Source of the DNA: Escherichia coli
GTDB taxonomy: Bacteria > Pseudomonadota > Gammaproteobacteria > Enterobacterales > Enterobacteriaceae
Assembly (NCBI RefSeq): GCF_041886205.1
Contig: NZ_CP169031.1
Strand: one strand, 5' to 3'
DNA: 64,000 bases
Positions 26,266-31,646 of the stretch are shown here, one piece after another. How positions within the stretch are numbered: position 1 is the first letter of the stretch; each line of letters begins with the position of its first letter. The translations under genes and the position numbers were made by a program. The notes beneath the pieces are model-generated. The model saw only the letters and a program-made list of their open reading frames with translations. It was not told where the DNA came from and made no database searches.

Positions 26266-28971
26266 ATGAATGACGTTACAGTTGTTACATCAGTTACTTA
26301 CCCATCACCCGAGTCGTTGGCTCTGGTGGCTGATGTGCAATACCACGAACCATATCTGTCAGCCGCGCTAAACCGAAAATTCAGGGGGATTGTTGACCCG
26401 GGATTTTATGCCGGTTTCTTACCTAAGCCTGGCGGTGGGATGAACCTGTTAATCACCTCAGTGGATGGTGATAAAACCGCAGGCGCGGCGTCGGTGGATA
26501 TTGGTGAATTCTACCAGGTAACTATTCAGCAACGTAAGGATATTTCTCTTGCACTTAGTGCAGGCAAGAAATATGCAATTGTGCTGAAGGGAAGATACCT
26601 CCTTGGAGAAGATACCTATCAGGTGAATACCGCGTCACATATTCATGCGGCTGAATTTGTTGCCAGAACCTATACCGATTCATATCAGTTAGGAGATGGA
26701 GAGCTGCTTGTTTGTACGGTGAATATCCCTGCTGGCGTATCAGCCATTACCCAGGAGATGATTGATACATCCGAGCGTATTAACCGCACGATCGGCATTG
26801 ATATTTCAGACTCTGTAACCAGTAGCAGAAGTGATGTTGCTGCAAGTTCGCTGGCAGTTAAAAAAGCCTACGATCTGGCGAAAAGCAAGTATACGGCGCA
26901 GGATGCAAGCACAACGCAAAAGGGATTAGTTCAGCTCAGTAGCGAAACTAACAGCGACAGCGAAACAATGGCGGCTACCCCTAAAGCCGTTAAGTCTGTA
27001 AAAGATCTTGCTGATACCAAAGCGCCAATAGAAAGCCCGAGTCTGACAGGAACGCCAAGCGCGCCGACGGCAGCGCAAGGTACAAACAGCACGCAGATAG
27101 CAAATACAGCCTTTGTTAAGGCAGCTATAACTGCACTTATCAACGGTGCACCTGGCACACTGGATACACTTAAAGAAATAGCTGCTGCGATCAATAACGA
27201 CCCGAATTTCAGCACAACTGTCAACAATGCTCTGGCCCTTAAAGCGCCTTTAGCAAGTCCTGCATTAACGGGAATACCTACTGCGCCTACCGCTGCACAG
27301 GGTACGAATAACACGCAGATTGCTACGACCGCTTATGTAAGAGCTGCCATATCCGCACTGGTCGGCTCATCACCTGAAGCTCTTGATACCCTGAATGAGC
27401 TTGCAGCAGCACTGGGCAATGACCCGAACTTTGCGACAACAATGACAAATGCGCTGGCAGGGAAACAGCCACTTGATGCAACTTTAACCGCGCTTGCTGG
27501 TCTTGCGACAGGCGCAAATAAATTGCCGTACTTTACCGGTACAGACACTGTTTCTCAGACTGACTTAACGTCAGTCGGTCGCGATATTCTGGCCAAAACA
27601 AGCGTTCTTGCTGTTATCCAATACCTTGGTTTAAGAGAACTCGGTACCAGCGGTGAAAAGATCCCCCTGTTGAGCACGGCTAACACATGGAGTGCGCGCC
27701 AGATTTTCAACGGAGGGATCACCGGGGCACTGACAGGGAACGCCGACACCGCGACGAAATTGAAAACAGCACGCACTATTGGCGGTGTGGCATTTGATGG
27801 TACTGCGAATATTAATTTACCTGGTGTTAACGTTGCGGGTAATCAGAATACATCCGGTAACGCGGCTACAGCGACCAAGTTGCAGACAGCATGTACTATC
27901 AACGGCGTCTCGTTTGATGGTTCTAAAAATATTGAGCTAACGGCGGAAGATTTAAATCTACAGGAATTTATTAATAAAGCAAATAATGCCGTTCAGCGTT
28001 CAGGCGATATCTTGTCCGGCGGACTTACTTTTGAAAACGACTCAATCCTTGCCTGGATTCGAAATACTGACTGGGCAAAGATTGGATTTAAAAATGATGC
28101 CGACAGCGACACAGATTCATACATGTGGTTTGAAACAGGCGACAACGGCAATGAATATTTCAAATGGAGAAGCAAACAAAGCACCACAACAAAAGACCTG
28201 ATGAATCTTAAATGGGATGCTTTGTCTGTTCTTGTTAAAGCCCTTTTCAGCAGTGAAGTAAAAATATCGACAGTCAATGCACTGAGGATATTTAATTCAT
28301 CTTTTGGTGCCATTTTTCGCCGTTCTGAAGAATGCCTGCATATCATCCCTACACGAGAGAATGAGGGGGAAAATGGTGATATAGGGCCACTACGTCCCTT
28401 TACGCTTAATCTCAGAACTGGCCGCATAACTATGGGGCATGGTCTGGATGTTACAGGAGATATAACAACTAACGCCTGGGTGTATGCAAACAGGTTTGCT
28501 ATTAATAGTGGCTCAACCTCATGGATTGATATGCGAAACCAGAATGTCATTTTTGGTAGAAACGCAGTATCAACAAGTTCTGCGCAGGCTTTGTTAAGAC
28601 AAGACCATGCAGAACGCAAATTTTTTGTCGGTGGACTTGGTAACTACCAGTTTGGTTTTTACATGATTAATAACTCAAGGACAGCCAATGGCACCGATGG
28701 TCAGGCGTACATGGATAATAACGGTAACTGGCTTTGTGGCTCGCAAGTTATTCCTGGCAACTATGGCAATTTTGATTCCAGATATGTGAGAGATGTTCGC
28801 CTGGGTACGCGAGTTGTTCAATTGATGGCGCGTGGTGGTCGTTATGAAAAAGCCGGACACGCAATTACCGGATTAAGAATCATTGGTGAAGTAGATGGCG
28901 ATGATGAAGCCATCTTCAGGCCAATACAAAAATACATCAATGGCACATGGTATAACGTCGCACAGGTGTAA
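26266..28971 (+). CDS. S: Tail fibre protein S (constant Sc plus variable Sv)
   Basis: Likely start MNDVTV at 26266 (track ORF from 26179); tandem ~67-aa repeats; crosses cixL at 27614; the variable C-terminal part lies inside the invertible segment. Confidence 0.75.
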   Translation: MNDVTVVTSVTYPSPESLALVADVQYHEPYLSAALNRKFRGIVDPGFYAGFLPKPGGGMNLLITSVDGDKTAGAASVDIGEFYQVTIQQRKDISLALSAGKKYAIVLKGRYLLGEDTYQVNTASHIHAAEFVARTYTDSYQLGDGELLVCTVNIPAGVSAITQEMIDTSERINRTIGIDISDSVTSSRSDVAASSLAVKKAYDLAKSKYTAQDASTTQKGLVQLSSETNSDSETMAATPKAVKSVKDLADTKAPIESPSLTGTPSAPTAAQGTNSTQIANTAFVKAAITALINGAPGTLDTLKEIAAAINNDPNFSTTVNNALALKAPLASPALTGIPTAPTAAQGTNNTQIATTAYVRAAISALVGSSPEALDTLNELAAALGNDPNFATTMTNALAGKQPLDATLTALAGLATGANKLPYFTGTDTVSQTDLTSVGRDILAKTSVLAVIQYLGLRELGTSGEKIPLLSTANTWSARQIFNGGITGALTGNADTATKLKTARTIGGVAFDGTANINLPGVNVAGNQNTSGNAATATKLQTACTINGVSFDGSKNIELTAEDLNLQEFINKANNAVQRSGDILSGGLTFENDSILAWIRNTDWAKIGFKNDADSDTDSYMWFETGDNGNEYFKWRSKQSTTTKDLMNLKWDALSVLVKALFSSEVKISTVNALRIFNSSFGAIFRRSEECLHIIPTRENEGENGDIGPLRPFTLNLRTGRITMGHGLDVTGDITTNAWVYANRFAINSGSTSWIDMRNQNVIFGRNAVSTSSAQALLRQDHAERKFFVGGLGNYQFGFYMINNSRTANGTDGQAYMDNNGNWLCGSQVIPGNYGNFDSRYVRDVRLGTRVVQLMARGGRYEKAGHAITGLRIIGEVDGDDEAIFRPIQKYINGTWYNVAQV
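27037..27444 (+). repeat. Tandem duplication (~2 x 201 bp) inside the constant part of S
   Basis: Two consecutive ~67-aa units (SPSLTGTPSAPTAAQGTNSTQIANTAFVKAAITALINGAPGTLDTLKEIAAAINNDPNFSTTVNNALALKAP and ASPALTGIPTAPTAAQGTNNTQIATTAYVRAAISALVGSSPEALDTLNELAAALGNDPNFATTMTNALAGKQP). Confidence 0.6.
27614..27639. promoter_or_regulatory. cixL recombination site for Cin
   Basis: ttatccaataccttggtttaagagaa, similar to the gix/cix 26-bp consensus, within S at the Sc/Sv junction; start of the inverted homology with the Sv' 5' end. Confidence 0.65.
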
Positions 28972-29502
28972 ATGATGCAGCATTTAAAAAATATTAAGTC
29001 TGGAAATCCTAAAACGAAAGAACAATATCAGCTAACAAAGAATTTTGATGTTATCTGGTTATGGTCCGAAGACGATAAAAACTGGTATGAGGAAGTGAAA
29101 AACTTTCAGCCAGACACAATAAAGATTGTTTACGATGCAAATAATATTATTGTCGCCATCACTAAAGATGCCTCCACGCTTAACCCTGAAGGTTTTAGCG
29201 TCGTTGAGGTTCCTGATATTACAGCCAACCGCCGCGCTGATGATTCAGGAAAGTGGATGTTTAAGGATGGAGCTGTAGTTAAACGGATTTATACGGCAGA
29301 CGAACAGCAACAACAGGCCGAATCACAAAAGGCCGCATTGCTTTCCGAAGCTGAATCAGTCATCCAGCCGCTGGAACGCGCTGTCAGGCTGAATATGGCA
29401 ACAGACGAGGAACGCACACGACTGGAAGCATGGGAACGCTACAGTGTTCTGGTCAGCCGTGTGGATACGGCAAATCCTGAATGGCCACAAAAGCCTGAAT
29501 AA
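28972..29502 (+). CDS. U: Tail fibre assembly protein U
   Basis: 176 aa directly after S; ~70 percent identical to the convergent U' copy. Confidence 0.7.
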
Positions 29503-29509
29503 AAATTAA

Positions 29510-31590: not shown

Positions 31591-31620
31591 CAGGGGGATC
31601 TTTTCACCACTGGTACCGAG

Positions 31621-31646
31621 TTCTCTTAAACCAAGGTTTAGGATTG
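31621..31646. promoter_or_regulatory. cixR recombination site for Cin
   Basis: ttctcttaaaccaaggtttaggattg, inverted partner of cixL; overlaps the cin 3' end. Confidence 0.6.

Follow-up and report, generated by a model that had tools for sequence, protein, structure and literature searches.

Tail-fibre genes with an invertible 3′ end are expected to switch between two states, and an inverted repeat that is split into two blocks raises the question of whether the inner block offers a second route of inversion, and hence further states. Here we address this question for a locus in a 64,000-nucleotide stretch of Escherichia coli DNA (contig NZ_CP169031.1; hereafter, the window). A first-pass annotation made from the sequence had described a cix-flanked invertible tail-fibre segment, with an insertion of around 95 amino acids in one arm and internal repeats that could recombine independently of the invertase Cin. 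The region is, with high confidence, a P7-type allele of the P1-family C-segment switch, carried on a P1-like (IncY-type) phage-plasmid. Both the C-segment switch and the P7 allele are already known, and the textbook picture is unchanged. Inversion does not need the split repeat, which is a by-product of the modular evolution of tail fibres. The switch sets which bacteria P1/P7-type phage-plasmids adsorb to and so where their cargo can go; these elements often bear genes for resistance, and P1 is in standard use for transduction.

An invertible segment between two cix sites

The invertible C-segment spans 27627–31633 (4,007 bp) and is 99.8% identical to the C-segment of P7 (AF503408, 35343–39371), in which the annotated crossovers likewise lie 4,007 bp apart. 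Both of the 26-bp sites expected to flank it were located: ttatccaataccttggtttaagagaa on the Sc side (27614–27639; crossover between 27626 and 27627) and TTCTCTTAAACCAAGGTTTAGGATTG on the cin side (31621–31646; crossover between 31633 and 31634), the latter overlapping the 3′ end of cin. The names cixL and cixR had been given the wrong way round, as the P1/P7 convention places cixL beside cin and cixR at the Sc side. The pair is in inverted orientation and each site has imperfect dyad symmetry around a central dinucleotide, as in other invertase switches. Across all 64 kb of the window, no further site comes within 8 mismatches of the cix consensus (matches expected by chance, 0). Both 26-mers are identical in P1, at the annotated cixR and cixL, and were also found in 11 of 11 relatives, in which ttatccaataccttggtttaagagaa occupies the Sc-side position.

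The p15B Min system and R64-type shufflons resemble the locus in that site-specific inversion varies the C terminus of a tail-fibre or pilus-tip gene, and p15B is related to P1 according to annotation notes. However, in those systems three or more crossover sites delimit several invertible sub-segments, whereas the window has two cix sites only. With no internal or quasi-cix site within 8 mismatches, a multiple-inversion system of the Min or shufflon kind was ruled out.

The invertase gene cin (31638–32198, minus strand) encodes a serine DNA invertase of 186 amino acids, within the range of around 185–190 that is typical of the class, with a catalytic resolvase domain at the N terminus (Pfam Resolvase, E = 1.5e-50) and a helix–turn–helix at the C terminus (HTH_7, E = 2.5e-18). 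It is 98.4% identical in amino acid sequence to P1 Cin. The 5′ end of the gene contains a homologue of the sis recombinational enhancer (32109–32180; 69 of 72 bases match the annotated P1 enhancer), so that the predicted FIS-dependent enhancer is placed in cis, inside the invertase gene.

Two tail fibres in one reading frame

Upstream of the segment, a homologue of the late promoter LPs, which drives R–S–U (25771–25789, plus strand; 18 of 19 bases as in the annotated P1 LPs), precedes gene R, and its spacing to the R start is that seen in P1. Gene R (25820–26254, plus strand), with a role in tail-fibre structure or assembly, is a 144-amino-acid open reading frame that has the position and length of P1/P7 gpR. 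It is followed by Sc, the constant 5′ part of S (26266–27626, plus strand), which comprises 453 codons plus 2 nt to the crossover. At 1,361 nt, Sc equals the annotated P1 Sc in length, and it contains Pfam Phage_fiber_2 repeats.

Inside the segment, the short variable arm that is now fused to Sc (27627–28971, plus strand; 447 amino acids) consists of modules N, R1 and R2 and an S-type tip. This receptor-binding tip is Mu S-like, has 73% amino acid identity to the P1 S tip and matches Pfam Gp34_trimer. R1 and R2 are tandem units of around 40 residues (27736–27933, plus strand) with the pattern GNAxTATKL..FDGS..NI, are spaced 120 nt apart and were also seen as a direct repeat (D1; 78 nt, 72%). 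The arm is followed by U (28972–29502, plus strand), the assembly chaperone for the S-type tip (Pfam Caudo_TAP, E = 8e-38). On the minus strand, the long variable arm (30067–31633; 521 amino acids), silent in the present orientation, is organized as N–R1–D–R2 plus an S′-type tip with 88% amino acid identity to the P1 S′ tip, and matches the Mu tail-fibre S/S′ structure (PDB 8ju3). Its chaperone gene U′ (29531–30064, minus strand; Pfam Caudo_TAP, E = 2e-36) is intact.

The locus thus has a constant 5′ part outside the segment and two opposed, alternative 3′ parts inside it, in the order Sc, then Sv–U/U′–Sv′, then cin, and both fusions are in frame. As had been proposed, the Sv′ frame on the minus strand crosses the cix site without a stop codon. 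S as found is 901 amino acids long; after in silico inversion at the central dinucleotides it becomes an uninterrupted protein of 975 amino acids, matching the annotated P7 gpS in length.

By homology with P1, LPs would transcribe R and S, and Cin, together with host FIS bound to the sis enhancer, would exchange strands at the central dinucleotides and flip the segment. The orientation in the window joins Sc to the 447-residue arm (N–R1–R2 and the S-type tip), followed by chaperone U; the opposite orientation would join it to the 521-residue arm (N–R1–D–R2 and the S′-type tip), followed by U′. Such an exchange of tips would alter receptor specificity and host range.

Relationship to P7, P1 and Mu

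The closest named phage is P7 (AF503408/NC_050152), which is 99.8% identical to the window over the 4,029 nt between and including the inner cix halves, has the same split repeat and the same 447- and 521-amino-acid arms, and carries annotations for cixL, cixR, Sv, Sv′, U, U′ and cin. P7 differs in that its segment is flipped with respect to Sc and cin, with the long arm fused and termed Sv. Its record also splits U′ into Ua and Ub, and it is the window that has an insertion sequence, ISCro1, immediately upstream of cin. The best plasmid match is CP057623.1, with 100% identity over 26200–32212.

P1 shares the cix sites, the invertase, the enhancer and the gene order (R–Sc, Sv–U/U′–Sv′, cin), but its segment is 4,256 bp long, its inverted repeat is a single, uninterrupted stretch of 636 nt at 98% identity, and both of its arms have the R1–D–R2 arrangement. 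One arm of the window has no D, and the D in the other arm is only around 65% identical to that of P1 at the nucleotide level. The G-segments of Mu, D108 and SfMu are 92–94% identical to the central ~3 kb of the segment (tips, U and U′). The Mu G-segment follows the same logic under Gin and gix, with alternative S/S′ tips paired with U/U′ chaperones, and the Mu tip is the one of known structure. The match to Mu-type records is restricted to those central ~3 kb (query 1802–4791) and does not include the N, R1, D and R2 entry region; the invertase allele and flanks of Mu also differ from those of the window.

Both Cin-type isomers are common among database records at identities of at least 99.8%, with similarity breaking inside the cix sites (27616/31644). 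CP057623, CP148408 and CP182338 have the orientation of the window; P7, RCS47, CP031351 and CP032067 have the inverted orientation; and both occur among IMG/VR contigs. The isomers were seen across independent records rather than inside the population of the window's own element. Of the two kinds of isomer that had been envisaged, the Cin type is therefore well represented among independent records, and the inner-repeat type has no near-identical example in PLSDB, complete E. coli genomes or IMG/VR.

A split repeat made of fibre modules

Comparison of the region with its own reverse complement (blastn) confirmed that the inverted repeat consists of two separate blocks, whose previously given coordinates were good to around 25 nt each. 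The outer block (27616–27770/31490–31644) is 155 nt long at 94.8% identity (243 bits) and the inner block, R2/R2′ (27837–27959/31019–31140), is 123 nt long at 90.2% identity (159 bits); 40 dinucleotide shuffles reached at best 38 bits. A repeat search extended the outer pair to 27616–27813/31447–31644 (198 nt, 87%) and the inner pair to 27838–27966/31012–31140 (129 nt, 88%). Perfect runs in the outer block are 52, 32 and 28 bp long, and in the inner block a single run reaches 28 bp and every other run is 17 bp or less.

The blocks are the entry modules common to both arms: N and proximal R1 form the outer block and R2 forms the inner block. They are separated by 24 nt in the plus-strand arm versus 306 nt in the minus-strand arm, a difference of 282 nt or 94 codons, and protein alignment (alignment A1, columns 64–157) places the extra bases at 31162–31443 (minus strand). 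This gap corresponds to a 94-residue, putative fibre-shaft module, D, that is present in the long arm only and is absent from the S-type arm of both P7 and the window. Module D matches the tail-fibre PHROGs phrog_6722, 37852, 3299 and 22609 (E = 1e-44 to 1e-60); sequence searches of Pfam (even at E = 10), NCBIfam and the PDB returned no match to it.

The length difference of the insertion described in Sv′ is therefore real, and its polarity relative to P1, the reference phage of the family, is reversed. The repeat of P1 is single because both P1 arms carry the 94-residue module; measured against P1, it is therefore the S-type arm of the window that lacks a module, rather than Sv′ that has gained one. 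Put simply, the P7-type split repeat is what the 0.62-kb repeat of P1 would look like if a single arm had no 94-residue shaft module.

Invertible segments are a known cause of assembly errors, and a mis-assembled mixed-orientation population might in principle yield a split repeat or a 282-bp length difference. We consider such an artefact vanishingly improbable here, and independent records already refute it as an origin of the split repeat. The same architecture recurs base for base in P7, RCS47, CP057623, CP148408, CP182338, CP031351 and CP032067 and also in five IMG/VR contigs, all sequenced independently, and the reading frame of each arm is intact.

Shuffling of entry modules and tips among relatives

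Module D is present in both arms of P1, D6, JL22, pESA139_3 and pSA20094620.3. A clean deletion of D would be the simplest history of the short arm; we rejected it, as distal R1 has just 62% nucleotide identity between the short and long arms. Putative replacement by a different R–R entry cassette fits better. In pE6474.2 the arrangement is reciprocal, with D in the arm that ends in the S tip and the short entry in the arm that ends in the S′ tip. The tips of JL22, pSA20094620.3 and pE6474.2 are 96–98% identical to those of the window, yet they sit on P1-type entry modules that are just 65% identical to those of the window in D. Relatives thus display every combination of entry module and tip, and the conserved R2 of around 40 residues has therefore served as a recombination joint over evolutionary time. 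Judged from these alignments, entry modules and tips re-assort at the R2 block across P1-like elements, which could be useful for the engineering of P1 fibres.

An insertion sequence next to the invertase gene

A copy of ISCro1 (IS66 family; 32210–34907, plus strand) sits on the upstream side of cin, 11 nt from its ATG start codon, and is flanked by an 8-bp target duplication, TTTTACTC, at 32202–32209 and 34908–34915. The name is taken from the annotation of copies at identities of at least 99.7%. CP057623.1 represents the empty site and is otherwise identical to the window over the region noted above; the cin::ISCro1 junction was absent from complete E. coli genomes and PLSDB plasmids. A consensus scan of 31500–32700 predicted no sigma-70-like promoter. 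As ISCro1 displaces the native cin promoters and no promoter is predicted nearby, expression of Cin may be low, and in the window's element the switch may be weak or even locked.

In the extreme case, the element would be a locked relic: with cin uncoupled from its promoters, the C-segment would be frozen, the short S-type fibre would be expressed and Sv′–U′ would be silent cargo. We regard this as possible, although the balance tilts against it. The insertion with its target duplication, its absence from CP057623.1 and the scan all point towards locking, and there is precedent in other P1-like plasmids, in which insertion-sequence activity has led to the loss or truncation of cin or to the loss of the C-segment (PMC6906374). 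Nevertheless, cin retains an intact frame, Shine–Dalgarno region and sis enhancer, neither cix site is damaged, there is no sign of decay in U′, Sv′ or the remaining genes, and a consensus scan leaves room for weak or read-through transcription from within ISCro1. Moreover, the invertases Gin, Pin, Hin and Cin complement each other in trans, and Pin of the host e14 element could flip the segment. A switch that may be locked by an insertion sequence is a modest by-product of the analysis.

Inversion at the inner repeat

The proposal that the inner repeats support a smaller, Cin-independent inversion held up in its geometry and reading frame only; near-identical recombinants were absent from PLSDB, complete E. 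coli genomes and IMG/VR. Under this proposal the switch would have four states: Cin would act at cix, and RecA-dependent exchange at R2 (27837–27959/31019–31140) would invert ~3.2 kb, exchanging the tips while the entry modules stay in place and giving in-frame fibres with or without D on either tip. We built two synthetic chimeras of the expected products, Q4 and Q3, the latter joining the short entry to the S′ tip. Q3 was the query for PLSDB, and for complete E. coli genomes a 722-nt version of it was used. High-coverage matches to Q3 were either the ordinary long arm, aligned in two pieces around the 282 extra bases, or a diverged class typified by pE6474.2; no recombinant with at least 98% identity was found in 72,556 plasmids (PLSDB) or 5,426 complete E. 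coli genomes. An exact junction-pattern scan of IMG/VR gave 0 recombinant versus 5 parental matches. The same scans of GTDB genomes and JGI metagenomes gave 0 recombinant matches, but the parental form was also at 0, so these collections carry no weight either way.

A four-state switch of this kind is very improbable. Both chimeric junctions are in frame, the inner repeat is genuine and well beyond chance, and its single 28-bp perfect run is about the minimal length usually quoted for RecA-dependent exchange in E. coli, which is reportedly ~25–30 bp. Efficient exchange calls for homology well above that length at low divergence, so a longest run of 28 bp in a repeat of merely 123–129 nt at 88–90% identity is at the threshold. 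Mismatch repair, which is said to suppress exchange strongly at around 10% divergence, would be expected to do so here. The outer block, with its 52-bp run, is a better substrate, and exchange there would yield the same product as Cin. Cin-type isomers are numerous in the very collections that yielded no inner recombinants at 98% identity or more. The reciprocal architecture does occur naturally in the pE6474.2 class, which matches the synthetic chimera in one piece at 85–88% identity, and inner-block exchange has therefore taken place during evolution, by one route or another. However, entry and tip sequences of the pE6474.2 type have diverged by 12–35%, and recombination between different elements explains them equally well. 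Should cin be silenced by ISCro1, the element itself would encode no route of inversion other than homologous exchange.

The P7-type C-segment may then, at long odds, be a four-state system in which Cin flips the whole and rare homologous exchange or gene conversion at R2 re-pairs the tips. If so, the S and S′ fibres would each occur in two lengths, long and short, the architecture of the pE6474.2 class would be the fixed product of such an R2 event, and exchange at R2 would be the last switching route wherever cin is impaired, as it may be here through ISCro1. The reading that we prefer is the two-state, P7-type switch at cix.

Between the convergent genes U and U′ lies a GC-rich palindromic hairpin (29507–29528; minimum free energy, −14.7 kcal/mol; z = −3.4), which was more stable than any of 200 shuffles and is a probable bidirectional terminator.

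Crossover sites and inverted repeats

The invertible tail-fibre segment (C-segment, 27627–31633) is bounded by two 26-nt cix sites, one next to the constant part of S (Sc) at 27614–27639, which was quoted in the first-pass annotation, and its inverted partner on the cin side at 31621–31646. The labels cixL and cixR had been swapped there; the P1 convention places cixL on the cin side. A scan of the whole 64-kb window for cix-like sites with no more than 8 mismatches from the consensus returned just these two (0 expected by chance). The C-segment thus has no internal cix-like site at this threshold and is therefore not a multiple-inversion system of the Min or shufflon type.

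The flanks of the C-segment share inverted homology in two blocks. A repeat search placed these at 27616–27813/31447–31644 (198 nt, 87% identity) and 27838–27966/31012–31140 (129 nt, 88%). Comparison of the region with its own reverse complement (blastn) gave an outer block at 27616–27770/31490–31644 (155 nt, 94.8%, 243 bits) and an inner block at 27837–27959/31019–31140 (123 nt, 90.2%, 159 bits); 40 dinucleotide shuffles never scored more than 38 bits. Both searches bear out the split repeat that had been read from the sequence, and the anatomy described with it was right. The gap between the blocks is 24 nt on the plus-strand arm versus 306 nt on the minus-strand arm, and the difference of 282 nt (94 codons) maps to 31162–31443 in a protein alignment of the arms. 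A third, weaker inverted similarity (about 350–400 nt at 70–72%) pairs U with U′ and includes the conserved C-terminal ends of the arms.

Genes R (25820–26254), S (26266–28971; 901 amino acids) and U (28972–29502; Caudo_TAP) are followed on the minus strand by U′ (29531–30064; Caudo_TAP; an intact 177-amino-acid open reading frame), the silent arm (30067–31633) and cin (31638–32198; Resolvase and HTH_7). The 521 codons of the silent arm are open through the cix site, and inversion of 27627–31633 in silico regenerated both cix sites and yielded an S protein of 975 amino acids, in agreement with the in-frame fusion to Sc that had been proposed. Between the convergent U and U′, in the middle of the invertible segment, lies a GC-rich hairpin, AAGGCCCGC-TATC-GGGCCTT (29507–29528; −14.7 kcal/mol, z = −3.4), probably a terminator for transcription from either side. 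Within Sc, tandem internal repeats at 26900–27450 (Pfam Phage_fiber_2; motif such as ..SP.LTG.PTAPTAAQGTN.TQIA.TA.V..) correspond to the repeated elements a1, b1 and b2 annotated in P1.

The P7 allele of a known switch

The stretch 27616–31644 aligns in one piece, at 99.8% identity, with the C-segment of phage P7 (AF503408, 35343–39371), in which cixL, cixR, the crossover points, Sv, Sv′, U and U′ are annotated. In both, 4,007 bp separate the crossover points. The flanking sequences match in opposite orientation: the long arm is fused to Sc in the P7 record, whereas the short arm is in the window. The counterpart of the intact U′ is split into Ua and Ub in the P7 record (AF503408; 4916–5449 of our P7 locus, L001), which suggests a frameshift or sequencing error there. 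The closest plasmid match, pRHB20-C18_3 (CP057623.1, IncY), is 100% identical over 26200–32212 and has the same orientation as the window. Cin is 98.4% identical to that of P1, and 69 of the 72 bases of the annotated P1 sis enhancer (32109–32180 in the window) and 18 of the 19 bases of the late promoter LPs are conserved. The system is therefore already known: it is the P7 allele of the textbook Cin/cix tail-fibre switch.

Cin-type isomers are common at identities of at least 99.8%, with similarity stopping within the cix sites. CP057623, CP148408 and CP182338 share the orientation of the window, P7, RCS47, CP031351 and CP032067 are inverted relative to it, and both orientations are present among IMG/VR contigs. 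We infer the mechanism by which this particular molecule would switch from its homology to P1 and from these natural isomers. One IMG/VR contig with a P7-type segment (IMGVR_UViG_2690316068_000001) carries the Sc-side version of the cix 26-mer at both junctions, a pair that differs from the usual one Sc-side and one cin-side version.

A module present on one arm or both

We aligned the two arms of the window with those of P1 and ten further relatives. The variable arms consist of a constant entry (N), a repeat unit of around 40 residues (R1), an optional 94-residue stretch (D), a second repeat unit (R2) and a receptor-binding tip. D is found in both arms of P1, D6, JL22, pESA139_3 and pSA20094620.3, and only on the S′-type arm in the window, P7, pRHB20-C18_3 and pQ502. 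With D in both arms, P1 has one uninterrupted inverted repeat (636 nt, 98%), the classical 0.62-kb repeat. The first-pass annotation had reported an insertion of about 95 codons in Sv′; the extra length holds (94 codons), but its polarity does not, as relative to P1 it is the S-type arm that is without D, and the S′-type arm has gained nothing. The ‘insertion’ is a module that is present or absent depending on the arm.

D had no match in Pfam, NCBIfam or the PDB. It matched several PHROG tail-fibre families (E = 1e-44 to 1e-60), which identifies it as a recurrent fibre-shaft module. Clean deletion of D from the short arm is disfavoured by the distal half of R1, which is only 62% identical between the short and long arms. 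The short arm has the appearance of a distinct R–R entry cassette, and pE6474.2 carries a similar one (87% over the distal R1 stretch) joined to the opposite tip type.

Re-assortment at the repeat units

Plasmid pE6474.2 (CP116983) has the reciprocal layout (NZ_CP116983.1, 6215–10094), with a short R1–R2 entry on the S′-type tip and R1–D–R2 (D of 93–94 residues) on an S-type tip with 98% identity to that of the window. Its inverted repeat is also split, the S-tip arm being the longer by 279 nt; this architecture is common to several plasmids. JL22 and pSA20094620.3 carry tips 96–98% identical to those of the window on P1-type entry modules, the D of which is only about 65% identical to D in the window. 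Two further entry-region variants come from records NZ_CP100671.1 and NZ_CP047663.1: pR17.0904_99k has one repeat unit per arm in both arms, and pLD93-1-90kb has an expanded R–R–D–R–R array in one arm. A deletion of 120 nt from one direct repeat (R1) to the other (R2) would fit the single-unit arms; the other arm of pLD93-1-90kb ends in a tip with no relation to either P1 tip, S or S′. Among relatives, similarity changes sharply at R2 or just past it, a pattern that marks the conserved repeat units as recombination joints over evolutionary time. Such recombination could occur within one molecule or between elements.

Homologous inversion at the inner repeat, independent of Cin, had also been proposed. 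The geometry allows it, and both products would be in frame. RecA-dependent exchange in E. coli requires a minimum of about 25–30 bp, and divergence of around 10% strongly inhibits recombination in the presence of active mismatch repair. In the inner repeat (88–90% identity), a weak substrate, one perfect run reaches 28 bp and all others are at most 17 bp; the outer block has perfect runs of 52, 32 and 28 bp. We searched for the product with a synthetic chimera of the short entry and the S′ tip, and found no near-identical one-piece match among 72,556 plasmids or 5,426 complete E. coli genomes. In IMG/VR, the exact junction pattern matched 0 recombinant contigs versus 5 parental ones. GTDB genomes and JGI metagenomes, when scanned, yielded neither the recombinant nor the parental form, so these scans are uninformative. 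Inner-repeat inversion is a tentative, weakly supported idea, and a four-state fibre repertoire is very improbable.

An insertion upstream of cin

Similarity to pRHB20-C18_3 and P1 ends just upstream of cin, where a 2,698-bp ISCro1 element (IS66 family; 32210–34907), unseen in the first reading, lies 11 nt from the cin ATG. It has three open reading frames (32262–32939, 32939–33286 and 33306–34877) and an 8-bp target duplication (TTTTACTC); element and duplications span 32202–34915. ISCro1 is missing from CP057623.1, which matches the window at 100% identity as far as the insertion point, and the cin::ISCro1 junction has no record in PLSDB or in complete E. coli genomes. The native cin promoter region is displaced by about 2.7 kb and now adjoins lydC at 35026; a consensus scan of 31500–32700 detected no promoter-like site near cin. 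Other P1-like plasmids are described as having lost the switch through IS activity (PMC6906374). The insertion here has left intact the cin reading frame and ribosome-binding region, as well as the sis enhancer and both cix sites.
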